The translations under genes were made by a program, and so were the position numbers. A DNA stretch of 64,000 bases, taken from positions 16,445 through 80,444 of the forward strand of contig CAIWAD010000124.1 of the NCBI GenBank assembly GCA_903910645.1. The letters are read 5' to 3'. The notes beneath the pieces were generated by a model. The model did no database searches. It worked only from the letters and a program-made list of their open reading frames with translations, and was not told where the DNA came from. Source of the DNA: an uncultured bacterium. GTDB lineage: Bacteria; CAIWAD01. Below, one piece after another: positions 16,006 through 34,312 of this stretch (positions within the stretch are counted from its first letter, which is position 1; each line of letters opens with the position of its first letter).

Positions 16006-16420
16006 CTATGCAGACTTCTCCGATGACGGGAGGAAGTTCTTGTAATGTTTCTCCGCGCAGCCCGGGCAGATGCCATGGCTGAACTCCGCCTCTGAGTGCT
16101 CCTTCACATAACTCTCCACCGGACGCCAGGTACCTGCGTCGTCCCGGATCTTGTGGCACACACAGCAGATGGAAAGCAGGCCGCGCAGGGTTTTCAAACG
16201 GTGCACCAGCGTGCGCGTGAAGAACAGCACTACCAATGCGCAGCCAATGACCATGGTGGTTTCAATCAGGCCTTCCACCCAATTGACCGGCGTGGCCTGG
16301 AATCCAAAGAGCTTGTGCGGCAGGTCCAGGACCTCGTCCAGCCACATAATGGCCACTACGGCCAGAAAACCCGCGGCTTCCAGCAAGGCCATGCGTCGCA
16401 ACAGACCTGATTCCCGCATG
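16006..16420 (-). CDS. Small two-TM membrane protein with C-terminal Cys-rich CxxC...HGICPGC zinc-ribbon-like motif
   Basis: The likely start is ATG at 16418-16420 with GGAGG 5 nt upstream (MRESGLL...). Two hydrophobic helices are followed by SICCVCHKIRDDAGTWRPVESYVKEHSEAEFSHGICPGCAEKHYKNF. This is the last gene in the cytochrome operon. Confidence 0.5.
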
Positions 16421-16487: not shown

Positions 16488-18143
16488 TCAATAAGGTGCC
16501 GAGTCGTGGGCGTGGCCGTGGCACATCAAGGTGCAGTTGCCCTGGCTCAGGGATTGGCGCTCCACTTTCAGCCGGCCATCCAGCGGCTCAATCCAGGGTC
16601 GGTCCAGGCGCAGCAGGCCAGGCTGGTCCGGCGAGCCGTGGGGATCATGGCAGGAGGCGCAGGACAGGGCTCCGCGCCCCGTGTGCAGGTTGTGCCAGCG
16701 CCATCCTTCACCGCTGCTGAAGGAGCTTTCCTGATGGCAGGTGAAGCACAGGGCGTTCTCGCGGTCTTCACCTGTGGCGAAAGGCGAGGGATTGAAAGGC
16801 GCCTTGAGCAGGTGTTCGATGTTGGATCCGTGGGGGCCCTGGGGACCGGCGGGATCGTCGCTGCCATGGCAGTCGGAGCAGGTGATTTGGTCCAGGGCGC
16901 TCCATTCCTTTTTCAGGCTGGGCACCTCCGGATTCAGGCCGGGACCCATCACCGGATGGTAGCTACGGTTGCCCAAATCAAAATCCCGCGCCACATCGCG
17001 CTGGCCGGGAAGCGTGTTGCCCGTGAAGCCGTGGCACTTGAGGCAGATTTCGTATTCGAAGTCCGCCACATCCTTTTTCATGCCCAATCGGCTGATGCCG
17101 CTGACACCCTCCATGCTCCCCGGCATGGTGCGCACGCTGGACTGGCTGGACACAGCGTGGGGATTGTGGCAATCCGTGCAGCGCACGGCGCGGTTTTCAC
17201 GCGATCCCGCCAGGAAGCCCACAAAGCCCGACCCGTCCGGCTCCACGGTGCGGGAACCCGTGTGCACGCTCACCGGGTGGGTGAAGAGCTTGTCGAACTC
17301 CGCCCGCATGTTGTTGGGCGAAGGAATTTCCCTGGGCCCATCCACGCTGGCGTCGTGGCAACGGAAACACAGACTGTTCTCCTCCGCCAGCAGGAGGCGC
17401 GGCTGGGGTGGTGATGCGTGGATGCTGTGGCACTGGGCGCAGCTCAGTTCGCGCATCTCCGCGTAGAGGGGCTCGTCCGGGTTGGCGTGCACACTGTGGG
17501 ACCAGCCCTCCAGTCGGTGGCACTCCTGGCAAATGGCCCCCTGGGCGGACTCCACCTTCAGGAACTTGCCACGCGTGTTGTCGTGGGGGTCGTGGCAAGT
17601 GCTGCAGCGGATGCGCTCCCCGCGCAGGGTCATGCCCGAGGTGGCGCTGTCCGGTTTGGCCAGCTCGTGGTTGCGCGACCAGGTGAAGAGGTGAGTGTTC
17701 ATGTGGGTGGGCGCAATCTGCGCTCGTTCACCCAGATCCGTCTCCCGGCTGATGTGTTCGGCGGGATCCGTGGGAAAGGCCCGGGCCACGCTGCCATCGT
17801 GGCAGGCCAGACACAGTTGGCTGCCCGGATCGGCGGGGAAACCAGGCTCCAGATCATCGAGATGGGCACCCAGGGGGAAGGGCCCGCGGGGCAGGCGCCG
17901 GTCCCACAGGGGAATGAGCTGGTCGTGCACGCGGGGTCCGTGGCACACGCGGCAGAGCTGGCGCTCCATGGTGGTGTCGGAGGGCATCCCGGTGTGCCAG
18001 TGGGTCAGGTTGTGGGGTGAGGCCTGCACGCGGGAGGCTTTCACCTGGTCGGGATCGCTGGCCCCTGCCAGCAGGGCAAAGGCGCCCAGGGAAAGCGCGG
18101 GAAGGACGATCAGGGCCGCCCGGCGGAGCGAGAACATCACCAC
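16488..18143 (-). CDS. Multihaem c-type cytochrome (~12 haem-binding motifs)
   Basis: Signal peptide followed by CRVCH, CLACH, CSTCH, CQECH, CAQCH, CFRCH, CTDCH, CLKCH, CSDCH, CFTCH, CASCH and CTLMCH. The start overlaps the upstream OMP stop (TGATG). Confidence 0.85.
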   Translation of the reverse strand: MVMFSLRRAALIVLPALSLGAFALLAGASDPDQVKASRVQASPHNLTHWHTGMPSDTTMERQLCRVCHGPRVHDQLIPLWDRRLPRGPFPLGAHLDDLEPGFPADPGSQLCLACHDGSVARAFPTDPAEHISRETDLGERAQIAPTHMNTHLFTWSRNHELAKPDSATSGMTLRGERIRCSTCHDPHDNTRGKFLKVESAQGAICQECHRLEGWSHSVHANPDEPLYAEMRELSCAQCHSIHASPPQPRLLLAEENSLCFRCHDASVDGPREIPSPNNMRAEFDKLFTHPVSVHTGSRTVEPDGSGFVGFLAGSRENRAVRCTDCHNPHAVSSQSSVRTMPGSMEGVSGISRLGMKKDVADFEYEICLKCHGFTGNTLPGQRDVARDFDLGNRSYHPVMGPGLNPEVPSLKKEWSALDQITCSDCHGSDDPAGPQGPHGSNIEHLLKAPFNPSPFATGEDRENALCFTCHQESSFSSGEGWRWHNLHTGRGALSCASCHDPHGSPDQPGLLRLDRPWIEPLDGRLKVERQSLSQGNCTLMCHGHAHDSAPY

Positions 18144-19932
18144 AGTCTCCTCAGCACATGGATCCAGGCCTCCGTGTCCTTCCGTCCAAAGTGGTCGGGA
18201 TCGCCCACGAAGCGCAGGTCGGTGGTCAGGGTCAGCTTGTTCAGTTCAAACTCCACGAAGGAGCGCAGCCACATGCGCTCGGACAACTGGTCCCGGCCAG
18301 GCCGCCAGGTGCCGCGCACATTCAGCGAGGCAAGACGCAGCGGCTGCCAGCGCAGATGCATGGACAGGCGGTGTTCCAGGTCCACCAGATCCGCCGCCAC
18401 CAGGTGCTGCAATGCCATGGCGCTCAACTGGGCCTGCAAGCGATGGCCCCGGGCTTTCACCCACACTTCGTTCTTCAGCGTGTTGCGCAAAGTGTCGTCG
18501 CTGTAGACCAAATGGCTGCCCACATGGCGGCGCCACTCCAGACGATGTCCGCCCTGCAGGGTGCCATGGGGATTCAGTGTGCTGTTGAAGCTGGTCAACT
18601 GATCCAGCTCCTTCTGGGAAGGATCGGCCCAGGGGGCCACTGTTTCCCGGTCTTGCATGCGGAAGAGCTCCGCTCGCTGCAGGGCGCGCATGCTGAAGCC
18701 CAGCCAGGGCAGGGGCTCCACCGGCGCGATCATCTCCACCGTGGCCCGTCCCACCAGCCCGCGGCCATATTCGCGCGTCTCCGCCCAGCCGCCGCCCAGG
18801 TCGCCGCGCAGGGACAGATTGCGCTTCAACCACAGGGAGCGATCCATGAACCGGGACCAGGACTGGTGTTGGCCCGCGGCCTCCACCGCCGCCGCCATAC
18901 GCGCCAGGGGCTTCACCTGGAAGACCGCCAGGGCCAGCACATCCCGCCTGTGGACAAGATCCTCGTCCGTGATGCGCACGCGCTCGGTGGAGGCGCGCAG
19001 TTCGGCGCCCACTTCCTCCAAGGGCATCCAGCGCCAGGAGGCGTCGGCGTGACGGCGCAGCACATCCCGCTCCTCCAGCTCGGTGAAATCCGCGCCGGCA
19101 TTGATGGACAGGCGATGCTTCCCCCACAAGGTGGTGCGCAGGCGGTTCTGCCCCAGCACGCGGCGCACGCCCTTGCGCTGCACCAAAGCCGAGTTGCTGT
19201 GGACATCCACGCCACCAGGCAGCTCACCCGCCATGCTCAAGCCCGCAAGGCTGCGCTGAAGATCGAAGTCAAGGCTGTCCGCCAGGCCATACCAGGAGCT
19301 CTCGCCCCAGGCACGCGCCACGAACTGGTGCCAGGCGGGCACGCGGTGCTCCACCTCGGCCCGCATGAATCGATGGTCCGAGATGGCCTCGCCATTGAGC
19401 ACGCGACGGTTGCCCGCCACCACTCCCAGCTCGGTGGTGGGCATGGGACGCAGGGCCAGGCGCCCGCCCACGATCAGGTCGCGCAGGCGCAGGCTGTCGA
19501 TGAGGAAGGCATTGGGACGCCGCCAGCCGTGACGGGCGAAGAGTCCCAGTTCCACTCCGCCCAGGGGCGTCCAACCCAGGTCCGCCTGGAACTCGGGCGT
19601 GTAGATGCGCTGCTCGTAAAGACTGTTCTGTGCCATGGTGGCGCCGGTGCGCAGCAGCCAGTCCAGGCCGCCGGCCTTTTGCACCTGGCCATGGGCACCC
19701 ACCACCACCCGCGCCGTGTGCAGGCGCAGGTCCTCCCCGTAGGCCCCGGCGTAGCTGGAATCACTGACCCAGGTGCTGGTGTGGTCAATCCAGCCGTCCA
19801 GGGTGAAGGATCGCGACGGCTGATAGGCGGGCGCCTGCACCCATGTCGGAACCTGGAACGCGCCCAGCGCCGAACCGACAAGGGAAAGGGCGAAGAGCAA
19901 GGCGCAACGCATGTGGCGGGATCCTCTCATGG
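18137..19932 (-). CDS. Outer-membrane beta-barrel protein (putative porin component of a porin-cytochrome complex)
   Basis: The real start is an internal Met: MRGSRHMRCALLFALSLVGSALGA (signal). It runs ~570 aa with alternating amphipathic segments and ends in an aromatic residue (...VLRRLW). No TM helices. The upstream N-terminal extension of ORF 18137..20482 overlaps the NHL gene and was rejected. Confidence 0.6.
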
Positions 19933-20956
19933 CGCCACCTCCCCGGCCGGAAGTTCCGCCGACAGGTAGGGCAGATAGCGATAGGCCTGCACGCGCCGGT
20001 TGTACTGATCCACGATGTAGAGGTGGTCCCCGTGGAAGCAGAGCGCGCTGGGCAGCAGGAACTGGTCGCCCGCCCTGCCCGTGCCGCCGAACCAGTACAA
20101 AAGGGCGCCGCTGCGGCTGAAGACCTGGATGCGGCTGAAGGCGGCATCGCTCACATAAAGATTGCCGTCGCCATCGAAGGCCAGTCCCTTGGGAAACATG
20201 AAACCGCCCGGCGAGTGGTCGTAGACTCCGAAGGAGAACAGGAAGTCGCCCTGGGCGTTGAAGCACTGCACGCGATGGTTCAGGGCGTCCAGCACCCACA
20301 GTTGACCGTCGGGATCGCTGGCCACCGCCACGGGATGCAGGAACTGGCCCTGCGCGCCGCCTTCTCCACCCAGGGTGCGCTGCCAGCGGCCCTGGCCGTC
20401 GAAGCTCTCCACCACATGGCGGCCCGCATCCACGATGTGCAGCAGCGAGCCATCCCAGTGCATCTGTCCCGGCCTCTTCCATCCCTTGGGCGAAGACAGT
20501 TCGCCCTTCACATTGCCGGATCCGGACTCCAACAGGAAGACCTTGCCCCGGCCCGCGTCGCTCATGGCGATGCCGGCGGGAAAGGCGGCCACGCCCGTGG
20601 GCGTGGCGAACAAGGGCGAGGCCATCACTTCGAACGGTCGGGGCGAGCAGCCCTCGGGGCTAAGTCGCAGAAGGCGGGACAAATCGCCGTCGCACACCAG
20701 CACGCGGCCATCTGCATCCACATCCACATCGGTGGGGCGTCCCACGCTGGCGGTGGCGCAGCTGCCCGTCACCAGGCGCAGGGCCTTCATGCCCAGGCCT
20801 CCGTCCAGTCGCACCTGGGAAAGGACATCCCCCTCCTGCAGGTAGAGCGTGTCCGTGCCGGCGGCCACCAGGGGTCGCGGCCCCTGATGCGTCACCGTGG
20901 CGCATCCCGCCGCCAGGAGCAGGGAAAGGAAAAGGACAGGCAGGCGTCGCCTCATG
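19927..20956 (-). CDS. NHL-repeat beta-propeller lipoprotein
   Basis: Internal start MRRRLPVLFLSLLLAAGC (lipoprotein signal plus Cys). NHL-like repeats include GQFLHPVAVASDPDGQLWVLDALNHRVQCF and FMFPKGLAFDGDGNLYVSDAAFSRIQVF. The first ~340 aa of ORF 19927..21987 were rejected as a spurious extension. Confidence 0.7.
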
Positions 20957-23165
20957 GCAGCACCCGCTTCTCGCTTGAGTGGTAATAGCGGTACTTCCAC
21001 AGGGCCTTGTCTCCATGGCAATCGGCGCAGACGGCCTCGCTTGTCTCCTGGCGCAGGAAGTCCGGCGAATGTTCGCCGCCTCCCTCGGGGTGGGCCACAT
21101 GGGGGTTGTGGCAACTGGTGCAGTCCACGCGTCCAATGGCGCCGTCCGTGCGGCCCTCGGCATCGAAGAGCGGCATGGTGCGTCCGTCGGGTCGCGTCTG
21201 GCCCGCAAGGGTCATGTACTTCTGCGGATGGCCCCACGCCTCGGGTACATGGCTGCTGGCGCCCTGCTCGCGGTGGCAGGAGAGGCAGTGCCGGGCGCCC
21301 GGACTCCAGTTCTCCGCCTTGCGCTCCAGGCTTCCATCCGGCCGCACGGCGGCCACGCTGTCCATCTGGGCATTGTCCAGGCTGCTGGCGATGATGGCCC
21401 AATCCGACACGGCGCGGTGGGTGGTGTGGCAGGCCCGGCAGGCGCTCTCGTTGGGCCTGGTCTCGCTCAAGTCGTGGGCGCTTCCCAATACACGGGTCTC
21501 GCCGGAGTGGCAGGCGGAACAGAGTTGCGCGCCGGAGTTGGCCATGCGCAGGAAGGAGCTGTTGTCGTCGCCCTTGGCGTTGGCCTGCCAGGTGGGCGGT
21601 CCGGCGGGATTCCAGTGATGTGGCTCGTGGCAGGACTCGCAGCCCACCAGCAGATCGGCCGGTTCGGGTGTGCCGTCCGCAGGTCTCCAGGTGCGCAGGT
21701 TCTCTGCGCGGTAACCCGGCAGCTTGCTGCCCTTGGGCATGGCCCTGCCCACCGGATGGCCGTGCTGGCCCAGGGTGGTGGCCCCGTGCTTGCCGGTGCC
21801 CTCGTGGCAGCTCAGGCACAGGCTGGTGAACTCGGATGCTTCCGTCCGGGCATGGCCATCGCCAAATGCCTGCTGCTTGTGCGTGTTGTGGCAGGAAGTG
21901 CATTGGCCCCGGCTGGGCTCGCTCCAGTTGAAGGAGTTGTGGTCGGAGACCAGGGTTTGGGCCTGCTCGTTGTGGCAGTTGATGCACAGTCGGCCGTTTT
22001 CGTCATCGGGCAGGCGCAGGAAGCTGCCCAGGGCATCCCCATCCTCATTGCCCGGGCCCGGCTTGTGCCCTGGCATGGCGCTCCAGCGGTGGGGGTCGTG
22101 GCAGGTGGTGCAGCTCATGCCGCCCTCACGCAGGGGAAGGCGCACATTCTGCTCCTTCACCGGACGGTCCAGGGGATGGCCGTGCCCCACCCAGCTGATG
22201 GCGCCCGCCGCGCCCTTTTCCTGGTGGCAACTAAGGCAACGGGCGTCCACGCCATCCTTCACCACATCCGCGCCACGCCCGCCGGGCAGGGGCCAGGCCC
22301 ACATGGCCGGACCATTGCCGCCATGGGTCACATGGCAGGATGCGCAGGCGTCGCTTTGCCCGGCCGTGCGCCTCGTGTTGCCAATAGGCAGATTCCCGTG
22401 TTCTTCCTTCAGGTGGTGGTCGCTTTGCAGCACGGCGAAACTGGGCTCGTGGCAGCTGCGGCACAATTGGGTGCGGTCGGCGCCATCCACCAGCTTGGCC
22501 CGCTTGTCGCTGTGCATGTTGTGGCAACTAAGGCATTCCACCGTGCCTGTGGACACATGGCGTCCGGCCAGCTCCTGTGGCAGTGCCTGCTCCAGCTTGG
22601 CATGCAGGGGATGGTCTGTGTTGCGACGGGCGTGGTCCGCGTGGCACTTCAGGCACAAGGCGGAATTGTCCGCTTCCGCGCGCAAGAAGGGCACATACTG
22701 GAACTCGCGCTCCATGCGGTTCATGTGGGGCGTGTGGCAGCTGCCGCAGTAGATGTCCCCCTTGCGATCCAGGGGAAGGCCGCTGGCGGACACCGCCGCG
22801 CCATTGCTGGGCTTGTGGAAATGCGGATCGTCCTTCTGGAAGAAGCGCCGGCTGTCCCCCACATAACCGTCGTGGCAGGACCAGCACATGTCGCGGCTGG
22901 CCACGCGGGCTTCGCGGCCGTCGATCATCACAGGATGATCCACCGGCGGCAGCAGGACGGCCATCTTCTCATAGCCTTCACCCCACTCCACATGGCAGAT
23001 CACGCACTCCTTGGAGCGGTCCATGTGCAACTGGGCGTCCGCGCGACCGGCTGGGCCCAATCCAAGGGCAAGCCACAGGCCCGCGACTCCGCAGGCCAAG
23101 GTGGCGCGAAGCAGGCGGGCTTTCAGTCTCCGGGAGTCAAGATCCATGGGCGAAAATCCATTCAT
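20952..23165 (-). CDS. Multihaem c-type cytochrome (~18 CxxCH)
   Basis: Start MNGFSPMDLDSRRLKARLLRATLACGVAGLWLALG (signal). It has 18 CxxCH motifs (CVICH ... CADCH) spread over ~730 aa. Confidence 0.85.
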   Translation of the reverse strand: MNGFSPMDLDSRRLKARLLRATLACGVAGLWLALGLGPAGRADAQLHMDRSKECVICHVEWGEGYEKMAVLLPPVDHPVMIDGREARVASRDMCWSCHDGYVGDSRRFFQKDDPHFHKPSNGAAVSASGLPLDRKGDIYCGSCHTPHMNRMEREFQYVPFLRAEADNSALCLKCHADHARRNTDHPLHAKLEQALPQELAGRHVSTGTVECLSCHNMHSDKRAKLVDGADRTQLCRSCHEPSFAVLQSDHHLKEEHGNLPIGNTRRTAGQSDACASCHVTHGGNGPAMWAWPLPGGRGADVVKDGVDARCLSCHQEKGAAGAISWVGHGHPLDRPVKEQNVRLPLREGGMSCTTCHDPHRWSAMPGHKPGPGNEDGDALGSFLRLPDDENGRLCINCHNEQAQTLVSDHNSFNWSEPSRGQCTSCHNTHKQQAFGDGHARTEASEFTSLCLSCHEGTGKHGATTLGQHGHPVGRAMPKGSKLPGYRAENLRTWRPADGTPEPADLLVGCESCHEPHHWNPAGPPTWQANAKGDDNSSFLRMANSGAQLCSACHSGETRVLGSAHDLSETRPNESACRACHTTHRAVSDWAIIASSLDNAQMDSVAAVRPDGSLERKAENWSPGARHCLSCHREQGASSHVPEAWGHPQKYMTLAGQTRPDGRTMPLFDAEGRTDGAIGRVDCTSCHNPHVAHPEGGGEHSPDFLRQETSEAVCADCHGDKALWKYRYYHSSEKRVLP

Positions 23166-23188: not shown

Positions 23189-24133
23189 TCAGGGAATGTC
23201 GAAGCGGATGATGCGGCTGGCGCGGCTGTCCACCACCCACCACGAAGCTCCGCAACACACAATGGCCGTGGGACCCTGGAGTTGCCAGGGCTTGCCCTTC
23301 AGCATCAACTGGCCCTGGCTCTGGGCGTACTCGTCATAGGCGTGCACCATGCCCAGGTAGCTGTCGGTGATGAGCAGGCCCTTGCCGTTCCAGCAGGCGC
23401 AGGCGCCCTTGGGACGATAGAGACGCTCGCCATCGGTGCCAAAAGAGCCCACCATGCGGTCAAAGTTCCCCAAGCGCGTGTAGGCCTGGATGCGGCCGCC
23501 CAGCACATCAATCACCATGAAGCCGTTCATGTGGCGGGACAGGATGCCCGGAAACTTGAACTCCTCCACGCGATCGCCCGGCTTGCCGTCGGGCAGGCTC
23601 ATGCCCGCCATGCGACGCATGGGGCGGATCTCGTCGGCGCCCCGGCCAATCACTTTCAACAGGGCGCCGTCGTAGCTGATCATCAGCAGGCGATGGTTGT
23701 CGTTGTCGGAGACCACCAGCTTGTCCTCCAGCGCCAGCACATCCACCGGATCGCAATTGGCCGGAAGCTTGATGGTCTGCACGGGACGCCCGTCCAGGGT
23801 GGTGACGAAAATGGAGCCGGCATCCGGATCGCTCACATAAAGGCGGTCCTTCCAGATATCGTTGCCCACCGGGTTCACAAAACCATCGTGGCGGATTTCA
23901 CGCATCAGGGCGCCCTGGGGGCTGATGACCACCACGCGCTTGTTCAGGCCGTCCACCACATAGGCGTTGCCGCGCTCGTCGGCCGCCAGGTCCGTGGGAT
24001 AAGTGGTGCCGGCGGCCACATCCTCCAGAATGCGCACATCCACCGCGCCGGCCACGCCGGCCAGCATCAGAAGCAGGATCGGGAGGAGCAGGGCTCTCCG
24101 ATCAGTACGCGGGCGGCAGGAAGAAGACTTCAT
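23189..24133 (-). CDS. NHL-repeat beta-propeller protein (secreted)
   Basis: Signal MKSSS..RRALLLPILLLMLAGVAGA. Repeats include YPTDLAADERGNAYVVDGLNKRVVVI and DRLYVSDPDAGSIFV. Confidence 0.7.
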   Translation of the reverse strand: MKSSSCRPRTDRRALLLPILLLMLAGVAGAVDVRILEDVAAGTTYPTDLAADERGNAYVVDGLNKRVVVISPQGALMREIRHDGFVNPVGNDIWKDRLYVSDPDAGSIFVTTLDGRPVQTIKLPANCDPVDVLALEDKLVVSDNDNHRLLMISYDGALLKVIGRGADEIRPMRRMAGMSLPDGKPGDRVEEFKFPGILSRHMNGFMVIDVLGGRIQAYTRLGNFDRMVGSFGTDGERLYRPKGACACWNGKGLLITDSYLGMVHAYDEYAQSQGQLMLKGKPWQLQGPTAIVCCGASWWVVDSRASRIIRFDIP

Positions 24134-26683
24134 TGTCGGTCACACTCGCGGTTATGGCGCTGCTGCGCAGTTGGCGAATCCGCTCCTCGTCGAAGCCCAC
24201 GCCGTGGAAGTCCACCAGCCCACCCTCGGGCACATGGCATTCTCCACAGGTGGCGCCCGTGCCTTCGCCGGACTGGATGCGATCGTGGAAGCGGTCCTTG
24301 GTGTCCTTCATGCGTGCCTGGGTCATGGGCGCGGAATTCTGCCGGTACTCCTCGGCACGAGGGCTGTCCAGATCGGCATAAAGCGGCTTTCCGCCCACCT
24401 TCAAGCCCAGCAGGCTGGTGTAATTGTCCAGCCCGGTGAAGGGCGGTGTGCCGGTCAACTTATAGGGAGCCTTGGGCTCGCCCTGGGGCTGGCGGCGGAG
24501 ATCCAGCCAGCTCCACTCCGCGCCCTTGCGGTCGGCCTCCTTGGCGTGGCAGGTCTCGCAGGTCATGAAGCGGCTGTGCAGGTTCAAGTAGGCCCGCGTC
24601 TTGCGGTCGTTCTGGTGCGGCAACATGGCGTGGCAGAGCAGGCACTCGCTTTGGCGCAGGGTGGAATCCGCCGTCACCACCGGCTCGGCATCGTGGAAGC
24701 GTCTGTGGCGCCAATCCACATCCTCGTTGGCGACACGCAAGGGATAACTGGGATCCGCCAGCGCCGCCTCCTTGTCCGCCAGCGGGCGCTTGCACCACTG
24801 GGCCACCACATCGGCGGCGGCCGGAGCCTTGTCCACTCCCAGGTAGAGGCGGAAGGACCACACCATGGCGGCGCAGGTGACAATGGTGAGAAACAGAAAG
24901 GACCATCCCAGGGTGCGGGCCAGGGTGTCGCGCGTGCTGCGGCGACGCTCCCGGGCCCCGGTGACCTCGTTCACCAGGATGGGGCCGAACTTCTCCACGG
25001 CATCCGGCTCCATGAGCGCGCCGTGCTCCTCCTCCATGTCCTCTTCGCCCATTTTGCCGTCAATCCACACCTCGCTCATGGGCCAGCGGCTGGGCTTCCA
25101 GTGCACGTTCCAGAAATGCCACACCACGATGGCCGCCACGGCAAGGATGGCCTCCAGCGAATGCACCAGGCGGGCCAGGTCCACGATGAACTTGCTGCCC
25201 AGGTGCTCCATCCACAGGATGATGCCCGTTCCTGTCATCACCACGGAGCCCCAGGCGAAGGCCCAGTACTCCATTTTCTCGCCATAGTTGAAGAAGCCGA
25301 AGGCCGGGCGATCCTTCCGCAGGCCCAACATGAAGCTGATGTTGTGGCTGATGAGCTTCATGTCCGATGGGCCGGGGAGCATGGCCCACATCAGGGCCCT
25401 GCCGCGCTTGCTGAACACCGCATAGCCCAGGTGGTAGAAACTCACCAGCGTGAGCAGGATGGCCGCCACGCGATGGCTCCAGTCACGCACGGGCATGAAG
25501 TATTCCCACCGCACAAGGGTGCCGAAGCGCTCCGGCGGAATCCACAGCATGACGCCTGTCAGAGCCAGCAGGGTGAAGCTGGTGAACATGACCACATGAC
25601 TGATGCGCTCCGCTGGGCTCAGGCGGCGGAAGACACGACGCACGGCGCCTTCGGGCTTTTGGTGGTGGGCCGCTGCGTGCGCCTTTCGATGGCGACGCCA
25701 GGCGATGTAGTCCAGCAGATTGTGGCCCAGCATGCCGCCAATGGTGAGCAGGATGATCCAGATGTAAATGCGCTTCACCCACACCAGGGCCTGCACCTTG
25801 GTGCCCTGGTAAAGGTTGTGCATGCTGCCGGCGGTGGCGAAAGACACCGTGGCGCCATCGTGGCAACCGGTTGTGCTGCAGGTTTTCTGCAGGTTCGCCG
25901 GGTTGATCATGGACTTGGAATCCTGATGGCTCAGGATGTTGTGGTGGCCATGGCAGTCGGCGCACACGGGGCTGCGCTTGTCCCCGAAGTTGAAGCCGCG
26001 GCCATGGAAGGACTCCAGGAAGCTGGAGACCATGGTGCCATCGATGAGCAAGGTTTCAAGGCTGTCGGACACCAGCTCGTTGTCCGTGTGGCAGCGGATG
26101 CAGGCCTCGAAGTTCTGCTGATGCCTCCAGTACTCGTCCTCGCTGATGTGCAGGGCCAGGTGCTTGAAGTCCTCGTCCAGGGCGTTGTAGTTCTCGTGGC
26201 AGGTGAGGCACTTGGCCTTGGCGCGCTCCATGTCCTCCGGAAGCTTCTGCCAGTAGACGCTGTTGAAGTGGCAGTCCTTGCACACCGGCTTGCGGTGGTC
26301 GTAGGGGCCCTTCCCCGTCTTGCCATGCACGCTGGCCGCCAGGTCCCTGGCCATTTTCTGATGGGAGTAATCGGCGCCGGTGTAGGGATCGATTACATGG
26401 CAGGCCACGCTGCAGTCCACCTTTTTCACCGGCGCGCGGTGGGGCACCTGATCGATGTCCGTGTGGCACTGGCGGCAGGCGAAGCGGCCATGGATGCTGC
26501 TTTTATGGACGCCTTCGTCGATGGTGAAATTGCGCACGCCCGCGCTGTCGCTGACGGCCATCCAGGGCTTGCCATGGCAGAAGAGGCAATTCTCGGGATC
26601 GAAGGTGCTGTCCTGGGCCACGGCCAGTGTGGCCAGCAGCAGTCCCGCCAGGGCAAGGATCTTCCGCAGGGGATCCATCATTC
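24102..26683 (-). CDS. Fused multihaem cytochrome c / di-haem cytochrome b / cytochrome c membrane protein (CbcL-like quinol oxidoreductase candidate)
   Basis: Start MMDPLRKILALAGLLLATLAVA. The N-terminal periplasmic domain has ~8 haem motifs, including CSVACH and CSTTGCH variants. The central domain has 4-5 TM helices with conserved His: ISHVVMFTSF, WSHRVAAILLTLVSFYHLGY and VAAIVVWHFWNVH. This resembles FdnI/HydC-type cytochrome b. The C-terminal domain has CLLCH, CETCH and CGECH. Confidence 0.8.
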
Positions 26684-27481
26684 CTCCAGCATGGGGAAGT
26701 GGAAGGGTTCGTAATTCTCCACCATGCCCACGGCGGCGGAGTGCGTCAATTCGTGGATGCGCGGTTGGCTGAAGCCCAGCGCGACCCATGGGAAAGCGGC
26801 TTCCGGCGTGTGGCAGGCCAGGCAGGCGCTGGGCGTTTTGCCCACATGCTCCTCGGCGAACTCGCGGAACTGGGCCTCGTCGATCTCCAGCCCGCTCAGC
26901 GCGTCGGCGCGGAACTGCTTGTAGCGCTGGTCATCGTAGGGCGTGAACAGCAGGGTGTTGCCGCCTGCCGCCGTGAGCACAGGGACGATGCGGCTGATGA
27001 AGTTGTGCCGCCCGGACAGGACGCCATCCTTCCCCCGCTCAAGTCCATAGGGGCCCAGGGCCGTGACCGTGTTGTCCGTGTCGAAGGAGGTCCACTCCAG
27101 CGAGGTGCGCGCGCGCATGGTGTCGTCCAGATGGCAGGCCAGACAGCTCATGAAATGGCTGTGCTGGTTGTAGAAGGCACGGCGCTTGGGATCCTTGGTG
27201 TGCGGGAAAAGCGGGTGGCATGTCAGGCAGGCCTCCTGCTGGCCCAGGGGCAGCAGGCTGTGCACCTCGATGTTGTGGAAGTGCTGCTCCTGGTTGCGGT
27301 AGTCCTCGAACCAGGTCTCCAGCTGCTCCACATGGTCCGTGAAGTGGCGCCTTCCCTGCTTTTCCTCCTCGTGGGCCTTGTGGGGACGGTTGGTCATCCA
27401 CACCAGCCAGGCGGACACAGCGCTGCCGATGACCAGGGCCGTAAGGCCGTAGGCCACCCGGCTGAAGGTTCTCATGCTCAT
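26678..27481 (-). CDS. Membrane-anchored tri-haem c-type cytochrome
   Basis: N-terminal TM anchor, then CLTCH, CLACH and CLACH. The stop overlaps the start of the downstream fused c-b-c gene. Confidence 0.7.
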   Translation of the reverse strand: MSMRTFSRVAYGLTALVIGSAVSAWLVWMTNRPHKAHEEEKQGRRHFTDHVEQLETWFEDYRNQEQHFHNIEVHSLLPLGQQEACLTCHPLFPHTKDPKRRAFYNQHSHFMSCLACHLDDTMRARTSLEWTSFDTDNTVTALGPYGLERGKDGVLSGRHNFISRIVPVLTAAGGNTLLFTPYDDQRYKQFRADALSGLEIDEAQFREFAEEHVGKTPSACLACHTPEAAFPWVALGFSQPRIHELTHSAAVGMVENYEPFHFPMLEE

Positions 27482-28263
27482 GCGTCACCATCCCGGCCGG
27501 CGGCGCCGTCCTGCTTGTCGTCGTCGTCGTGGCGTCGCACACGGCCACGCTTCAACTGCTCAAGGATGTCCTCCAGCTCGCGGGGATGCTCGTGCATCAT
27601 CTCCTCTTCGCTAAGGGTGCCGCGGTACCACACCTTGTTGGCGGGCCACACGCGGGGATTGAAGTGCACGTTGTAGAAGTGCCAGATGACAATGGCCAGG
27701 AAGGCCAGCAGGGCCTCGTCACTGTGGGCCACATAGGCGATCTGGATGACCTCTGAGGGGAACCACTGGCCGCTGGCCTCCGGATACCACAGCAACAGGC
27801 CGCTGCCCGCCATGATGAACATGCCCCAGAACACCGCCCAGTAGTCGAATTTTTCGATGTAGGAGAAGCGGTGGAAGCGGGGACGCTCCTCACTCAGGAA
27901 AAGGAAGTAGCGGATGTTCGTGGCAATGTCCCGGGCATCCTGCAGGTTCGGCAGCAGATGCATGCCGGAAAGGGGCGTGCGGTTGCGCACGATGTTGAAG
28001 AACACATAGAACACATGGACGGCGAAATCGGCGATCATCACCACCGCGGCCACGCGATGAATGGTGCGCACCGTGTCGATGCCCCCGAAAAGGTTGATGG
28101 AGTGCGACCAGAAGGCGGTGTCCGGGAACTTGATGGGGAAGCCCGTCACCACCAGGACAATGAATGGCACAAACATGAAGATGTGCTGCAGGCGCTGGCT
28201 GAGCGAGAAACGCACATACTCCCGCCTTCCCCCCACCACGCGAATGCGATCACTCACTCTCAT
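27478..28263 (-). CDS. Di-haem cytochrome b membrane subunit (FdnI/HydC/PF01292-like)
   Basis: The real start is the internal ATG (MRVSDRIRVVGG). Four TM helices carry His ligands (TIHRVAAVVMIADFAVHVFY; IVIWHFYNVHF). The upstream 112 aa of ORF 27478..28599 are Ala/Arg/Pro-rich and were rejected. Confidence 0.7.
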   Translation of the reverse strand: MRVSDRIRVVGGRREYVRFSLSQRLQHIFMFVPFIVLVVTGFPIKFPDTAFWSHSINLFGGIDTVRTIHRVAAVVMIADFAVHVFYVFFNIVRNRTPLSGMHLLPNLQDARDIATNIRYFLFLSEERPRFHRFSYIEKFDYWAVFWGMFIMAGSGLLLWYPEASGQWFPSEVIQIAYVAHSDEALLAFLAIVIWHFYNVHFNPRVWPANKVWYRGTLSEEEMMHEHPRELEDILEQLKRGRVRRHDDDDKQDGAAGRDGDA

Positions 28264-29296
28264 GGCGGCCTCCTCCCGAGAAGCGCCCGTGGACCCAGCG
28301 GCCGAAGTCCAGCAGGATGTGGCTGAAGAGCAGGGCCATGGTGATGGCCGTGAGCAGGATGAAGCCCCAGGTGACCACATAGACCACCGGATTGCTCTCC
28401 ATGGTGGGCTTGCTGTGGATGGCCGAGCGCGCGAACTCAATGCTGGGGCTGATGTGGCAGCCCGTGGTGCCGCAGGTCTGGCGGATGTTCGCCGTGGACA
28501 GCGTGGAGGCCGGGTCGTCCTGGGGCAGCACAAGATGACTGGTGTGGCAATCCGCGCAGTTGGCCACGCCATCCAGGCCGCGCCGCATGGCCTTGCCATG
28601 GAAGTGGTGCTGGAAGCCTTCCACCTGCGTGCTGCTCACATTCACGCTCTCCATCAGCGTGGCGTCGCCGTGACAGCTTGAGCACAAGCGCACGATGTCC
28701 AGCGAGTTCTCCGCGCTGCGGTGGGAAGTGTGGCGGTCAATGTGCTGGATGACGCCTTCCAGGGACTTGCCGTCGTGGCAGTTGGCGCAGTGCTTGGCCT
28801 GCTCCTGCACGCGCTGGTCCGGGGCCGCCATGCGATGGCTGCCGTGGCAGTACTTGCAGCCGGGCTTGGCGGCGTTGGTTTCGGGATCGTCCTTGGGATT
28901 CTGCCCGTGCACGCTCATGGCGTGGGCTTCCACTTCGCCGCGGTGGGAGAACACCGTCAGCTCGAAGGGGCGGTTCACATGGCAGGTCTTGCCGCAGTCC
29001 ACCTTCTGCACCACCTGTGGATGCGGAAACGCATCGATGTCCGCGTGGCAGTCCCGGCAGCCGATGCCCTTGTGGGAGCTGTGCATCACGGTCTCGGCGC
29101 TCACCTCGTAGAGGCGGAAACGGCCCTTGTCGTCGTGGCGCGACAACAGGGGCAGCCCATGGCAGAGTTCGCAGTTCTCCGAATCCGCCAGACGCGGATT
29201 GGCCAGCGAAGACGCCAGCGGCAGCAAGGCGAGAAGGGCCGGGAGCAGGCCCCTGGCCAGAGAGGCCAAGGCGCCCCTACAGGTCGTGACAGGCAT
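28250..29296 (-). CDS. Multihaem c-type cytochrome (~8 haems) with C-terminal TM anchor
   Basis: Signal peptide, then CELCH, CRDCH, CGKTCH, CKYCH, CANCH, CSSCH, CADCH and CGTTGCH. The C-terminus has a hydrophobic helix (VVYVVTWGFILLTAITMALLF). Immediately upstream of the cytochrome b gene, so this looks like a split Cbc-type module. Confidence 0.8.
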   Translation of the reverse strand: MPVTTCRGALASLARGLLPALLALLPLASSLANPRLADSENCELCHGLPLLSRHDDKGRFRLYEVSAETVMHSSHKGIGCRDCHADIDAFPHPQVVQKVDCGKTCHVNRPFELTVFSHRGEVEAHAMSVHGQNPKDDPETNAAKPGCKYCHGSHRMAAPDQRVQEQAKHCANCHDGKSLEGVIQHIDRHTSHRSAENSLDIVRLCSSCHGDATLMESVNVSSTQVEGFQHHFHGKAMRRGLDGVANCADCHTSHLVLPQDDPASTLSTANIRQTCGTTGCHISPSIEFARSAIHSKPTMESNPVVYVVTWGFILLTAITMALLFSHILLDFGRWVHGRFSGGGRHESE

Positions 29297-30218
29297 AGCA
29301 GATCCGCTCTTTTGCCGCCCGCAGGAGCTTGGAGGCGGGGGCGCCTCCGCCCGAGCAGGCGGGATTTGGGCTGTGACAGGTGGCGCAGGCCACCGTTCCC
29401 CCGGGTCCCAGGGGCAGGATCACGCCGCTCTGGGCCTGGAACCGTTCCAGCGCGGCGGCGGTGTTCATCTTCAATCTGTTGTGCAGCACGGAGCGTCCCA
29501 CATGCTCCCGCTCATGCTTCACATCCTTGTGGCACTTCAGGCACAGTTCGCCCTGGGGCAGCTGAAGGCCCTTGCCGGGCTGGGCCGCATCGCCGCCCTC
29601 CGCGCTGTGGCAGTACCAGCAGGCCTTGTTGTCCTCGGACTGGCCGTGGGGATAGGTCTGCTTGTAGAGTTCGCGCGTGTGGCACTGGTAGCAGAAGTCC
29701 GTCTCCCGGGGCCATGGTCCGCCACGCAGCATGCTGCGGTTCTCCCGCGCCACGCGATAGCTGGTGGTCTCGTCGCAGTTGATGGCGTGGCAGGTCAGGC
29801 AAGTGCCACGGCCTTCCTTCAGGCGCGCATTGGCCGGACTGGGCGCCTTGGAGCTTGCCCCGGAGAAATCCGTGGGATGGATTTCACGCAAATGGGCCTG
29901 GGGGTCGTGGCATTCCACACAAGCGCCGTCCCGCCAGTTGGCCGCCGCCGGAGTCTGCCCGGGCGTGTGGCATTGGTCGCAACGGTTGGGCCGGCCGTGG
30001 GGGTTGTCCTTGCCAGGCAGAGTCAGGTGCTGCTTCTGGGCGGGCCTGGGTGCCGGGGCCGCCGCACGCGCGGGCACGGGTGGCTTGCACAAGCCACAGG
30101 ACGGTTTGGCGCAGTCATCATGGGTGGCCGGGGCAGGAGCCGCTCCCAGCTGGGCACCAAGCAGCAGCGCCAGCAAACCGACAACCCAGGAACCTGACCA
30201 CGAGCGTTGAACCATCAC
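29277..30218 (-). CDS. Periplasmic octahaem c-type cytochrome
   Basis: Start MVQRSWSGSWVVGLLALLLGAQLGA. Motifs CDQCH, CVECH, CLTCH, CYQCH, CWYCH, CLKCH, CATCH and CYACH. Confidence 0.8.
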   Translation of the reverse strand: MMVQRSWSGSWVVGLLALLLGAQLGAAPAPATHDDCAKPSCGLCKPPVPARAAAPAPRPAQKQHLTLPGKDNPHGRPNRCDQCHTPGQTPAAANWRDGACVECHDPQAHLREIHPTDFSGASSKAPSPANARLKEGRGTCLTCHAINCDETTSYRVARENRSMLRGGPWPRETDFCYQCHTRELYKQTYPHGQSEDNKACWYCHSAEGGDAAQPGKGLQLPQGELCLKCHKDVKHEREHVGRSVLHNRLKMNTAAALERFQAQSGVILPLGPGGTVACATCHSPNPACSGGGAPASKLLRAAKERICYACHDL

Positions 30219-30222
30219 GCCA

Positions 30223-31410
30223 TCACTCCAGCGGATAGGATAGGCCTTGCTCCTCCCAGCGATTGGGAAGGGGCAGGTCGTCATGGATGAGCGCATTGGC
30301 GCCGAAGCGCAGGCTGAGCAGGTCGTAGCCCAGCACATTGAGGTAGAAACCCACGAAGGCGCTGGTCTGGCCCGTCCAGCAGTAGAGGACATTGGTGTTG
30401 GCCGGATGCAGGGCGCTCAGGTCCTGATTGGTGGTCAGGCTGCCCGGGCTAAGCTGATAGGCGCCCTGGACATGGCCGTACGTGAAGTAGTCGTCCTGCA
30501 GCCAGTAGTTGTGGATGATGAAGGAGCCGGGGTTGTCCATGACCTCGTAGGCGTTCACAGCGTTGGCCGTGAAGCCCTCCGCCAACACCGCCGACACCCG
30601 CGCCTGCAGAATGGCCTGCCCCGAGGCCAGTCCCGTGGACAGCTCGGGCCAGTCGAAGGTGGGAAGGGCGGGACTGTTGCCGTAGCTCATCACCGATTCG
30701 TATGCGTTGCTGATGCCTGCATTCCAGGGCCCTGCCAGCAGGTCGTTCCACCCCGCCATGCCCCATTGCAGACTGAAGGCGTCGTGGCCCAACATGCGCA
30801 ATGCCATGGTGGCGAAGGCCGCCACCTGTCCCGTGTCACAAGCCAGCAGCACCGGCAGGCCGCCACTGTTCTGCCCTTCCACCGTGGACACCAGCGTGGT
30901 AAGGCTGGCATTGCGAGCGCCGGGAATGTGCCCTGCCAGGAAGGCCTGGCTGCTGCGGAGATCCACCACGAAGTACTGGCCCAGATTGGCGTTCACCGTG
31001 GTGGCAGGCAGGATCCAGTTGGTGGCCCAGGTGGCGAACTGGGCGTCCGTGATGGCCGCCAGGCGGTTGAATTCCCCGCGCACGGAGATGGAGGTGGAAC
31101 GGCTGGCGCTGTCCACGCCATCGCTGACCTCCACCAGGATCGTCACCTGCCCGGAAGCCGGTGCCTGCCACTGGATGTTGGCCGTGCTGCCAATGGCCAG
31201 ACCATCAACTGTCCAGGCATAGGTCAAGGCGTCGCCATCGGCGTCGCTGGCCGTGCAGGCAAGAGTGATGGTCTCGCCGGGATCGGGGGTGGGATCGCTG
31301 GCGGTGACACCGCTGATGACAGGCGGGCTGTTGCCCTCCTCAGAAGAGGAACAGCCACCCAAAATGAGGGCGGCCATCAGGCCCGTGACGAAAATGCGTG
31401 CGCGACCCAT
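30223..31410 (-). CDS. Lipoprotein with N-terminal PKD/Ig-like domain and two rhodanese-like domains
   Basis: Lipobox ILGGC. The PKD-like segment reads TASDADGDALTYAWTVDG. The rhodanese domains contain YFVVDLRS...AGHIPGA, with Cys loops LLACDTGQVAAF and LYCWTGQTSAF. Confidence 0.7.
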   Translation of the reverse strand: MGRARIFVTGLMAALILGGCSSSEEGNSPPVISGVTASDPTPDPGETITLACTASDADGDALTYAWTVDGLAIGSTANIQWQAPASGQVTILVEVSDGVDSASRSTSISVRGEFNRLAAITDAQFATWATNWILPATTVNANLGQYFVVDLRSSQAFLAGHIPGARNASLTTLVSTVEGQNSGGLPVLLACDTGQVAAFATMALRMLGHDAFSLQWGMAGWNDLLAGPWNAGISNAYESVMSYGNSPALPTFDWPELSTGLASGQAILQARVSAVLAEGFTANAVNAYEVMDNPGSFIIHNYWLQDDYFTYGHVQGAYQLSPGSLTTNQDLSALHPANTNVLYCWTGQTSAFVGFYLNVLGYDLLSLRFGANALIHDDLPLPNRWEEQGLSYPLE

Positions 31411-31471: not shown

Positions 31472-32431
31472 TTAGTTGGTTTCCAGCTCGTAGTTGAAGC
31501 CGGTGGCGGCCCAGGCGTTGGCCGGCATGGTGTCGTGGTACAGCGCGTTGGCGCCGTACTTCAGGCTAAGCACATCATAGCCCAGGGCGTTCAGGTAGAA
31601 ACCCACCAGGGCGCTGGTCTGGCCCGTGTAGCAGTAGAGCACCTGCTGGTCGGCGGGATCCAGGGCGTCCAGGTCCGTGGTGGTGGTCAGGTTGCCCGGA
31701 GTCAGCTGGTAGGCGCCGTCGATGTGGCCAACGGCGTAGTGGGCGGCGCTCCAGTAGTTGAAGATCTGGTAGTCACCCGGAGTGGCCATTACGGTGGCTG
31801 CGGTGACGATGTTGGGCGTCAGGCCTTCAGCCAGGATGGCGTTCACGCGGGCCTCCAGGATGGCCTGGCCATCGGTGAGGCCGGTGTTCAGTGCAGGGAA
31901 CTCGAAGGTGCCCAGGGCGGGGCTGGCGCTGGTGACCATGTTGCCCACATAGGCGTTGCTGATGCCCGTGGCCCAGCTGGTGTTCAAGGCGTCATTCCAA
32001 CCGCCCATGCCCCACTTCACGGAGAAGGCGTCCGTCCAGCCCAGCATGCGCAGAGCCATGGTGGCGAAGGCCGAAGTCTGGCCCGTGTAGCACACCACCG
32101 CCACCGGCAGGTCGCTGGTGTTGTTGGTGGCGATGTTGTCGGCCATGGTGGTCAGCGTGGCGTTGTGGGCGCCGGGGATGTGGCCGGCAGCGTAGTCCGT
32201 GGCGCTGCGCAGGTCCACCACATAAAGGTTGGCCAGGTTGGTGTGGACATAGTCCGCGCCCTGCACCCAGCCCGTGGTCCAGCCGGCGAAGCCCGTGTCC
32301 GTGAGCTCGCTCATGAGGGCGAACTCGTCCACCGGTGTGGTATTGTCGTCGTCGTCATCCTCGGAGCAGCCGGTGAAGACGGAAAGGGTGAGCGCCACGG
32401 ACAAAGCCAAGGCGAGCTTCTGGAACTTCAT
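31472..32431 (-). CDS. Lipoprotein with two rhodanese-like domains (paralog of 30223..31410)
   Basis: MKFQKLALALSVALTLSVFTGC lipoprotein signal. LYVVDLRSATDYAAGHIPGA. Cys loops VVCYTGQTSAF and LYCYTGQTSAL. Alignable to the neighbouring gene over the full rhodanese region. Confidence 0.7.
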   Translation of the reverse strand: MKFQKLALALSVALTLSVFTGCSEDDDDDNTTPVDEFALMSELTDTGFAGWTTGWVQGADYVHTNLANLYVVDLRSATDYAAGHIPGAHNATLTTMADNIATNNTSDLPVAVVCYTGQTSAFATMALRMLGWTDAFSVKWGMGGWNDALNTSWATGISNAYVGNMVTSASPALGTFEFPALNTGLTDGQAILEARVNAILAEGLTPNIVTAATVMATPGDYQIFNYWSAAHYAVGHIDGAYQLTPGNLTTTTDLDALDPADQQVLYCYTGQTSALVGFYLNALGYDVLSLKYGANALYHDTMPANAWAATGFNYELETN

Positions 32432-32531
32432 GCGAACTCCTGTGTTTTGGAAAGTTGGGTCCATTGACCCATTGGTGACGCGCCCGTGGCCGCCGACCCT
32501 CCCAAGCCCGCGGCCCGACCCGTTTCAACCA

Positions 32532-34094
32532 TCAATGTCTGTTCCAATACCTCGTGATGCTGTCGTCCACTGCAGTGGCCCGGTTGGCCCGCACATACTC
32601 GTCGGGGTCCTCCAGACCCGTGACGGACGACTTCAAACTGTCCAGATGGCTCAGCCACAGGAAGCGCCTGGCGTTGGCCTCCTCGTGCGGGCCCTGGACA
32701 TGGCAGCTCATCCAGCAGTCTCCCATGCTGTAGGCAGGGTTGGACAGCGCCACGGCCGTCTGGGGCGTGAAGCGCTGGATGTTGTGGGGACTGGAGTACT
32801 CCCAGGTGGGGAAGGAGGACCAGTTCTGCAGACTGGGCCAGCCCCACTCGCGAAAGCCATCCTTGATCACCGGGATGTGGCGCACGGTGACCCACTCCTC
32901 ATGCTCCACCGGATGGGTGGAAATTGCGCCTGTGTTGCGACCAATGCGGAAGTCAGTGTACTCAGAATACCCCTCGGGGTCTCCACTGTTCCACACGCCG
33001 CCGGAGTGGCAATTCAGGCAGTTGGTGTAGGGCTGGCTGTGGCACACGGTGCAGGACAGGCCCTCTTCCATGGAGCCTTCCCCCGGCCAGTGATAGGCGT
33101 GGAAAAGGTTGTCCTCCGCCGCCAGGCTGTGGCAGTTGGTGCAGCGCGGCATGCCTTCCACTTCATAACGGCTGGTGTAGTCCGTGCGGCCGTCCCCGTG
33201 CAGATTCTCCTGGTGGCAGAAGAAACAGTCGAAGCCCAGCTCATTGTGCACATCGGGGCGATTGCCCTCGTGGTGGCCGTTGTAGTCGTTGCCCACGCGG
33301 CTGCCATGGCAGGCGGTGCAGTTGTTTTCAATGTCAGGCGTGCGCTTGAAGCGATGGCTGTCCAGCAGGCCGCCCTTCACACTGGTGGGACGGGACACAT
33401 GGCATTGGCCGCAGGTGGCGTGGCAGCTGGAACATTCCCGCGCATGGCCTTCCTTGAGCAGCTCGGGACAATCCTCCCAGCTTTCGTAGCCGGCGCGCAG
33501 GGCGATCTTCGCCTTTTCGCCCCACAGCTGGCTGTGCATGGACGTGGCATGCAGGTCCACGATCTGGGCATGGCAACCCGTGCCGTTGCAATTCAGCTCC
33601 GGCTGGGTGCTGGGATCCCGCGTGATGCCCTTCACCGTGGGCTTTTCACGAATGACGCGCCCGTTGCTGGTGTAGCGCACCTCGAACTGGTGGGCCGCCG
33701 CCATGGCCACCCACAAATCATCCCGCGAGCCACTGGCCGCCACCACCTGATCCACGCCGCCGTGGCAGGTGACACATCCCACAGCCGCATGGTTGGGGTC
33801 AACTTCGGCGTAGCTGTCGGCGTCGATGAACACTTTTGCATAAGGCTCCAACGGAGCCACGGCGCCGCCTCAGCCACCACCCGCGCTTTCACTGGCCGCC
33901 TCTTCCACCGCCAACAGACGCAGATAGTCCCGGTTGGTGTGGCAGCTCTCGCAGCTAAGGGTCACCGCGTCGCCCGACGAGGCGGGATCCGCGGTGATGG
34001 GGTCGATGCGTTCGCACCCCTGCTGCAAGGCGGCAAAGAGGCTCCCCCACAACAGAAGGCGCCACCATGCCTGTGAAAATGCGCTTGTCGTCAT
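32532..34094 (-). CDS. Multihaem c-type cytochrome (~11 haem motifs) interrupted by a single in-frame TGA (33870-33872)
   Basis: ORFs 33870..34094 and 32532..33860 are in the same frame, separated by one TGA. The first carries signal peptide MTTSAFSQAWWRLLLWGSLFAALQQGC and CESCH. The second carries 10 haem motifs with no signal. The TGA sits in the codon run GGT GGT TGA GGC GGC. Confidence 0.7.
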
Positions 34095-34284: not shown

Positions 34285-34312
34285 AATATAGGCGGCGAAG
34301 GCGCAGAGTCAA
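34285..34312 (-). promoter_or_regulatory. Candidate sigma70-like promoter for the cytochrome operon (minus strand)
   Basis: The minus strand reads TTGACT-N16-TATATT (reverse complement of 34285-34312). It lies ~190 nt upstream of the first cytochrome start, in the only AT-richer intergenic stretch of the region. Confidence 0.3.

Follow-up and report, generated by a model that had tools for sequence, protein, structure and literature searches.

Why would one bacterial operon carry two versions of what looks like the same inner-membrane electron-transfer module, one as a single polypeptide and one in pieces? The question is raised by a 64,000-nucleotide stretch (hereafter the window; G+C content 65%) of contig CAIWAD010000124.1, GenBank assembly GCA_903910645.1, from an uncultured bacterium. 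Here, four successive genes on the minus strand of the open reading frame (ORF) map encode an octahaem cytochrome c (c8), a dihaem cytochrome b (b) and a trihaem cytochrome c (c3) as separate proteins, followed by one protein in which all three parts are fused (Table 1). Of the steps of extracellular electron transfer, the one carried out by inner-membrane quinol oxidases is the least understood, and CbcL of Geobacter sulfurreducens is its main bc-type model. The reading that we favour, and consider fairly probable, is that both versions are quinol/quinone:cytochrome c oxidoreductases of the inner membrane, paralogous members of a CbcL-related family that are each complete in themselves and would provide parallel connections to the quinone pool.

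The fused gene occupies an ORF spanning 24102..26789, and its real start is an ATG at 26681 or 26678; gene callers take the latter, giving 858 amino acids (aa), whereas the boundary of 26683 in a first-pass annotation of this DNA falls in the wrong frame. The polypeptide runs from a signal peptide through an octahaem c domain, an anchor helix, a region matching PF01292 and a further helix to a trihaem c domain. The haem order is that of the annotation, which had counted only four to five helices in the membrane part; hydropathy and an AlphaFold2 model both give six, comprising one anchor, four in b and one before c3. In the model (mean predicted local distance difference test score, pLDDT, 76; above 90 throughout the b domain) these helices span residues 293-340, 355-379, 391-422, 465-489, 496-527 and 580-613. 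Eight haem motifs precede the membrane region, six of them CXXCH, the third CSVACH (CX3CH) and the eighth CSTTGCH (CX4CH), and three CXXCH follow it. The fusion is no assembly artefact, because full-length relatives of about 850 aa form 18 sequence clusters (31-100% identity) across which every haem motif is invariant, together with nine further histidines in the c8 domain, four further in the c3 domain and four in the membrane domain. Indeed, throughout the c8/b/c3 family all 11 c-haem motifs and sufficient distal histidines for bis-histidine ligation are invariant. Attachment of c-type haem demands a periplasmic location, and positive loops follow the first helix and precede the sixth, which is compatible with both c domains being periplasmic. 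Sequence and model together place both c domains on the periplasmic face, with one b haem near each face of the membrane.

The three genes upstream had been annotated as the same module in unfused form, and pairwise alignment bears this out. In colinear order, BLASTP matched fused residues 29-329 to c8 (32% identity, E 8e-44), 349-565 to split b (37%, E 4e-41) and 654-857 to c3 (28%, E 3e-20). This similarity is real and far beyond chance, and the annotation's caveat that fused and split versions might share no alignable sequence can be set aside. Even the unusual haem motifs recur, as c8 carries six CXXCH with CGKTCH and CGTTGCH in the pattern of the fused domain; its gene is called identically in L001 (L-numbers denote fetched relative loci). 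Both modules are comparably conserved, at 70-78% identity to L003 and 49-70% to L010, and therefore both are under purifying selection with neither decaying. The existence of cluster versions with a single module could suggest that one copy here is a redundant or decaying duplicate without a separate role. However, every haem motif and b-haem ligand is intact in both window copies, both are retained at comparable identity in L003 and L010, and a divergence to only 28-37% identity means that they have long persisted side by side, making decay or redundancy highly improbable.

By sequence comparison, the split genes are no recently unfused version of the fused gene; the two copies are old paralogues. 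In neighbour-joining trees, four Desulfobacterota metagenome-assembled genomes (MAGs) supply the fully split b genes that join the fused b of the window in 100 of 100 bootstraps, whereas its own split neighbour joins it in none. Scores from hidden Markov models agree, with 206-226 bits for the Desulfobacterota split b genes versus 153 for the window's own split b. The fused b is therefore orthologous to split b genes elsewhere, from which it follows that the window copies are old paralogues and that the fusion state is labile. Models of the three parts, scanned against all ORFs of 85 loci, found every arrangement. The c8-b-c3 fusion occurs in MAGs of the Fibrobacterota-Chlorobiota-Bacteroidota (FCB) group, in some Desulfobacterota MAGs and in many Phycisphaerae; c8-b plus a separate c3 is the commonest form; c8 plus b-c3 is found in Desulfurivibrio sp. 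and Desulfobulbaceae; and all three parts are separate in the window and in L003, L010, L015, L061, L067 and L074. Tandem pairs or triplets of modules were found in all three groups. The host of the window is itself an FCB-group bacterium, and its closest named matches are labelled Candidatus Delongbacteria, 'Acetofilamentum sp.' and 'bacterium'.

These pairs may stem from a single duplication shared by all groups or from several: the b tree supports an old paralogy for the FCB and Desulfobacterota copies, while the c8 tree is contrary, as are the Planctomycetota module pairs, which cluster inside their phylum. Some individual loci are worth recording. Two Desulfobacterota MAG loci, L015 (6196..15479) and L074 (3452..13702), have three modules in a row that differ in fusion state, one of which, at 12671 in L074, is an unusual 343-aa protein with similarity to c3 as well as to the beginning of c8. 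In L066 and L070, b or c3 is cut in two, and some such splits may be draft-assembly frameshifts. Geothrix alkalitolerans (L088, 6001..10092) has two adjacent CbcL-like c-b fusion genes with 11 haem motifs each, one lacking the sixth helix and the other possessing it, and next to them a gene for a small dihaem protein. The c8/b/c3 family is therefore not alone in showing tandem duplication of bc-type quinol oxidases.

The identification of the membrane domain as a quinone-type dihaem cytochrome b, also proposed at first pass, was upheld by profile, fold and ligands. Both copies match PF01292 (Ni_hydr_CYTB; prokaryotic cytochrome b561, FdnI/HydC) above its cutoff of 30.1 bits, the fused one at 49.2 bits (E 7e-13) and split b at 60.3 bits (E 2.6e-16), and there are local matches below the equivalog cutoffs to TIGR01583 and TIGR02125, models of formate dehydrogenase gamma and hydrogenase cytochrome b. 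The only sequence relative of solved structure in the PDB is Escherichia coli FdnI (1kqf_C; about 20% identity). This protein is also the top Foldseek match of the fused model (E 8e-5, target TM-score 0.68), followed by the Hyd-1 cytochrome b (4gd3_A), in a whole-protein search that was informative about no domain but b. When 93 b domains of related loci are aligned, exactly four histidine columns are invariant (93/93), corresponding to His361, His402, His506 and His521, which are likewise invariant in 18/18 full-length relatives. Helices 1 and 2 of the b core carry one each and helix 4 carries two; in six-helix numbering these are helices II, III and V. The last-helix pair aligns with FdnI His155/His169. 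Four ligands had thus been correctly expected, although their placement in pairs on helices II and V had not. Such pairs are the scheme of NarI and the bc1 complex, and this criterion was dropped in favour of the observed 1+1+2 pattern of FdnI.

In the topology given by sequence and model, the haem held by His402 and His506 lies on the periplasmic side and that held by His361 and His521 on the cytoplasmic side. The loop before core helix 3 reads (N/S/T)-x-x-(E/Q)-K, with the lysine in 93/93 domains and Glu or Gln in 91/93, and aligns with FdnI residues 110-114, which we take to line the menaquinone/HQNO (2-heptyl-4-hydroxyquinoline N-oxide) site beside the cytoplasmic-side haem. A further histidine, His319 (window 25722..25724), sits near the cytoplasmic end of the fused octahaem anchor helix and has a counterpart in the 'SHILLD' of the c8 anchor (approximately 28292..28309). 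It occurs in both window copies and in Geobacter CbcL-type proteins, yet in only 24/97 family members, and was rejected as a family feature. Joshi et al. speculated that a fifth histidine in CbcL could permit alternative haem ligation.

The relatives of the third part, c3, are all annotated as hypothetical. A word-indexed search yielded only 15 close matches, and a full profile search of 1.84 billion representative proteins was required to see the family, with 434 matches at E <= 1e-3 and 246 at E <= 1e-10. These fall into three length classes, about 240-375 aa for stand-alone proteins, 500-590 aa for b-c3 and 800-910 aa for c8-b-c3. In the window's c3, the invariant distal histidines are 69, 94 and 107. 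If c3 were a quinol dehydrogenase of the NapC/NrfH kind, it would bring a second quinone site to the periplasmic face. The region of its first haem does have weak local matches to NrfH (TIGR03153, E 6e-4) and to NapC/NirT models, and its N-terminal helix resembles those of NrfH and CymA. However, the TIGR03153 match scores 19.9 bits against a cutoff of 134.2, PF03264 likewise falls below its cutoff, there are three haems rather than four, and the first CXXCH (residue 85) lies some 55 residues past the helix at 9-27 instead of directly after it. On profile scores and haem layout the relationship was rejected, and a second quinone site of this kind is very unlikely.

How, then, does the unit relate to CbcL? 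CbcL (GSU0274) of G. sulfurreducens is a c-b fusion and menaquinol oxidase needed below about -0.1 V (Zacharoff 2016). It belongs to a known superfamily, CbcL/MtoC/MtrH, which is reported to comprise members of 416-1034 aa in 15 phyla (Zhong and Shi 2018, PMC6295460). The fused gene fits the layout of this superfamily, with a secreted multihaem c domain, an anchor helix and b in one polypeptide, whereas the split copy has them on separate polypeptides. For the comparison, probable CbcL orthologues were chosen by genus, length, nine haems, six helices, V205 and F525/526; they are Geobacter/Trichlorobacter proteins of 615-617 aa with about 24-26% identity to the fused protein, recovered in a genome scan and alignable across b and the end of the c domain. 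In both kinds a single helix connects an N-terminal periplasmic multihaem c domain to a dihaem b of FdnI/HydC type, the fused form has six membrane helices, and the four b-haem histidines and the (E/Q)-K loop are identical; the first-pass choice of CbcL as comparator was apt. The differences are equally clear. CbcL has nine canonical CXXCH, in contrast to the eight motifs of the c8/b/c3 family, in which CX3CH at position three and CX4CH at position eight are conserved from FCB-group MAGs to Phycisphaerae. CbcL also stops at its sixth helix, where the c8/b/c3 family adds a trihaem domain of about 245 aa or a separate c3, and Geobacter CbcL loci lack the NHL and large-cytochrome neighbours described below. 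Because it has eight haems (two in atypical motifs) rather than nine and a trihaem third part, the unit is, by sequence, a relative of CbcL and not CbcL sensu stricto.

The sixth helix offers a possible bridge between the two. All 16 Geobacter/Trichlorobacter CbcL-type proteins (one a fragment) terminate in a hydrophobic helix. In the c8/b/c3 family, the tails of about 60 relatives show that every b or c8-b protein lacks this helix and has a short hydrophilic tail instead, while the next gene encodes a c3 with an N-terminal helix; in fused forms the sixth helix connects b to the trihaem domain. From its position, and with weak sequence similarity between the helices, we infer that the sixth helix of CbcL is the positional equivalent of the c3 anchor. 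CbcL has its place in a wider family whose usual form has a helix-anchored trihaem third part, which provides a testable reading of its otherwise unexplained sixth helix. In Desulfurivibrio, a 'CbcL homologue' is reported to be up-regulated during Fe(III) oxide respiration, and one Desulfurivibrio genome (L068) carries the c8 plus b-c3 form.

Other known systems share parts of this design. FdnI and the Hyd-1 cytochrome b have the same four-helix dihaem b fold, with histidines on helices 1, 2 and 4 and a conserved loop where helix 3 begins, beside the cytoplasmic-side haem. The redox partner of FdnI on the periplasmic face, FdnH, is anchored by one helix of its own, as are c3 and c8 here. They differ in that the partners here are multihaem cytochromes rather than iron-sulfur or molybdopterin subunits, and FdnI also in the spacing of the histidines on its last helix, 14 residues as against 15 here. 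CbcBA (GSU0593-0594), compared by its published description, resembles the split set in pairing a periplasmic multihaem cytochrome with a C-terminal anchor and a separate dihaem b. However, according to Joshi et al., CbcB has three histidines with the fourth on the CbcA anchor and is not homologous in sequence to the b domain of CbcL, whereas split b carries all four and is 37% identical to fused b. CbcA has seven haems, and descriptions of CbcBA mention no third, trihaem subunit. The porin-cytochrome/NHL conduits (Geobacter Ext/Pcc, Tenderia Uet, Sideroxydans PCC3) are alike in context, with periplasmic and large multihaem cytochromes, NHL beta-propellers and a putative outer-membrane barrel, and the Geobacter extH cluster also has rhodanese lipoproteins; unlike the window, the described clusters that were consulted have no c8/b/c3 inner-membrane module. 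The open-access literature searched yielded no account of the trihaem part, C-terminal or separate, of the sixth-helix equivalence, of labile fusion states or of recurrent tandem pairs, and nothing specific on a named c-b-c architecture, on Phycisphaerae or Delongbacteria cytochromes, or on clusters of NHL proteins with cytochrome b. The c8/b/c3 unit is a variant within the known CbcL-related kind, not a new system.

Each module consists of a periplasmic octahaem c on one helix, a four-helix dihaem b and a trihaem c on one further helix. Under the favoured reading, menaquinol would be oxidised, or menaquinone reduced, next to the cytoplasmic-side haem, at a site lined by the (N/S/T)-x-x-(E/Q)-K loop and His521. 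The two b haems would carry electrons across the membrane to the c haems of c3, c8 or both, from which they would pass on to the periplasmic and outer-membrane multihaem cytochromes of the same operon. By analogy with the FdnH helix packed beside FdnI, c3, c8 or both could be held on the periplasmic face by their helices. If menaquinol is oxidised, protons would be released inside while charge moves outward, spending membrane potential that helps to drive electrons to low-potential acceptors, as argued for CbcL; the opposite direction would amount to an FdnI-like energy-conserving loop. The two modules would most simply be parallel entry or exit points to the quinone pool that differ in their properties, and on this hypothesis they may serve different potentials or acceptors. 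Several points weigh against this picture. Module function is taken over from FdnI and CbcL by homology; the putative quinone site is placed by alignment with FdnI; model confidence for the c domains is moderate (pLDDT 55-87); the way in which electrons flow cannot be read from the sequence; the c8 tree, unlike the b tree, joins the two FCB copies as a sister pair; and the co-transcription and translational coupling described next fit one joint complex at least as well as two routes.

All genes of the cluster seem to be expressed from one place. The sole promoter-like site lies upstream of the whole cluster (34312..34285), with no internal promoter or terminator signal, and successive genes overlap, the upstream cytochrome with c8 by 20 nucleotides, c8 with b by 14, b with c3 by 4 and c3 with the fused gene by 1-4. 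As the copies are translationally coupled in one operon, any functional difference between them would have to be post-transcriptional. The same arrangement raises the question of whether the two modules are subunits of a single hetero-oligomeric membrane complex that works jointly, and the recurrence of tandem paralogous pairs in FCB-group MAGs, Desulfobacterota MAGs and many Phycisphaerae, of CbcL-like pairs in Geothrix, and of two lineages kept distinct across long evolutionary distances would all suit such a complex. Yet an identical conduit is served in L086 by a single c8-b plus c3 module, from which it follows that one module suffices for the cluster; single modules are also found in L007-L009, within the DNA examined, and Geobacter CbcL is known from the literature to work as a single protein. 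A joint complex is, in our estimate, rather doubtful. More speculative still, and unlikely, is a tandem pair that acts as a functional unit in which one paralogue serves as quinol oxidase and the other as quinone reductase, or in which the two have opposite potential gating, with c3 as an obligatory docking subunit on the outer b haem and CbcL as a reduced form that keeps only the c3 helix. If true, a single operon would provide a bidirectional or self-regulating link from the quinone pool to an extracellular conduit.

The neighbouring genes fit an electron conduit across the cell envelope. Relatives of the 312-aa cytochrome adjoin the module in many loci of all three groups, and nearly every locus has, downstream of its module or modules, an NHL protein and a cytochrome related to the 18-CXXCH one. 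The order of the downstream conduit genes is shared by L003-L010 and L086. The 591-aa protein, kept between the NHL lipoprotein and the 11-CXXCH cytochrome in FCB relatives and L086, is from its sequence probably the conduit's outer-membrane barrel. The small 137-aa protein at the operon end is conserved in L003-L007. One of the two rhodanese lipoproteins has an Ig/PKD-like N-terminal domain, and in L003 and L004 the two are fused into one 612-aa protein.

Table 1. The two modules, the domains of the fused protein and the other genes of the operon, in window coordinates.
Feature	Position	Strand	Remarks
Fused module c8-b-c3, 858 aa	24102..26678	-	start overlaps c3 stop (ATGA); alternative ATG at 26681
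Fused residues 22-295, octahaem c domain	25794..26615	-	eight invariant haem motifs and nine further invariant His
Fused residues 345-560, four-helix dihaem cytochrome b core	24999..25646	-	His361, His402, His506, His521
Fused residues 580-613, sixth membrane helix, link from b to trihaem domain	24840..24941	-	helix in model; tails of about 60 relatives
Fused residues 614-858, trihaem c domain	24105..24839	-	motifs at C679, C707, C811 and His662, 688, 701, 798 invariant
c3, trihaem cytochrome c, 267 aa	26678..27481	-	N-terminal anchor helix (transmembrane 9-27), 3 CXXCH
b, FdnI/HydC-type dihaem cytochrome b, 261 aa	27478..28263	-	four helices, no sixth; hydrophilic 30-aa tail
c8, periplasmic octahaem cytochrome c, 348 aa	28250..29296	-	signal peptide, C-terminal anchor helix; hydrophobic segment 311-329
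312-aa cytochrome, 8 CXXCH, upstream of c8	29277..30215	-	overlaps c8 start by 20 nucleotides
Rhodanese-domain lipoproteins, two	30223..31410 and 31472..32464	-	lipoboxes LGGC and FTGC
8-CXXCH cytochrome, 442 aa	32532..33860	-	
74-aa ORF, operon head	33870..34094	-	
NHL propeller	23189..24067	-	directly downstream of fused module
18-CXXCH cytochrome	20952..23165	-	
NHL lipoprotein	19927..20955	-	
Putative outer-membrane barrel, 591 aa	18137..19912	-	signal peptide, C-terminal Trp, no Pfam match
11-CXXCH cytochrome	16488..18137	-	
Small protein, 137 aa, operon end	16006..16419	-	one CXXCH, hydrophobic N-terminus, no Pfam match

The operon also bears on the direction in which the modules run. 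An uptake role would take electrons from an extracellular or periplasmic donor, such as Fe(II), reduced sulfur, a cathode or a partner cell, through the c haems to menaquinone at the cytoplasmic face, in an FdnI-like energy-conserving redox loop. FdnI of Fdn-N (1kqf) itself passes electrons toward menaquinone. In the literature, CbcL/MtoC/MtrH homologues are found in Fe(II) oxidisers and Fe(III) reducers alike, and for CbcBA of Seep-SRB2, a syntrophic sulfate reducer, operation in the reverse direction has been proposed. The presence of two rhodanese lipoproteins and the provenance of the closest named genome (L007), from an assembly whose isolate name starts with 'SulCav', could point the same way. 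However, rhodanese lipoproteins also occur in the Geobacter extH cluster, where ExtH of extHIJKL has been linked to selenite and tellurite reduction, the characterised relative CbcL is a quinol oxidase, and no sequence feature sets the direction. We regard uptake as less likely than not.

From a broader perspective, the occurrence of all fusion states in nature provides ready-made constructs for structural work, and a single chain guarantees a 1:1:1 stoichiometry. The linked module, NHL propeller and large cytochrome may mark electron exchange with solids in uncultured lineages, and the repeated tandem pairing hints that possessing two modules is favoured.

Outside the operon, the window holds a few other genes of note, all on the minus strand. 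An RCC1-repeat protein (4306..6351) has a weak, below-cutoff match to Por_Secre_tail, the C-terminal sorting domain of type IX secretion, which fits an FCB-group host. A 1151-aa protein (38208..41663) fuses a B12-binding domain, a MeaB GTPase and methylmalonyl-CoA mutase in an IcmF-like architecture. Two large ORFs, at 8162..11908 (1248 aa) and 41572..42699 (375 aa), have gene-like codon composition and no Pfam match.

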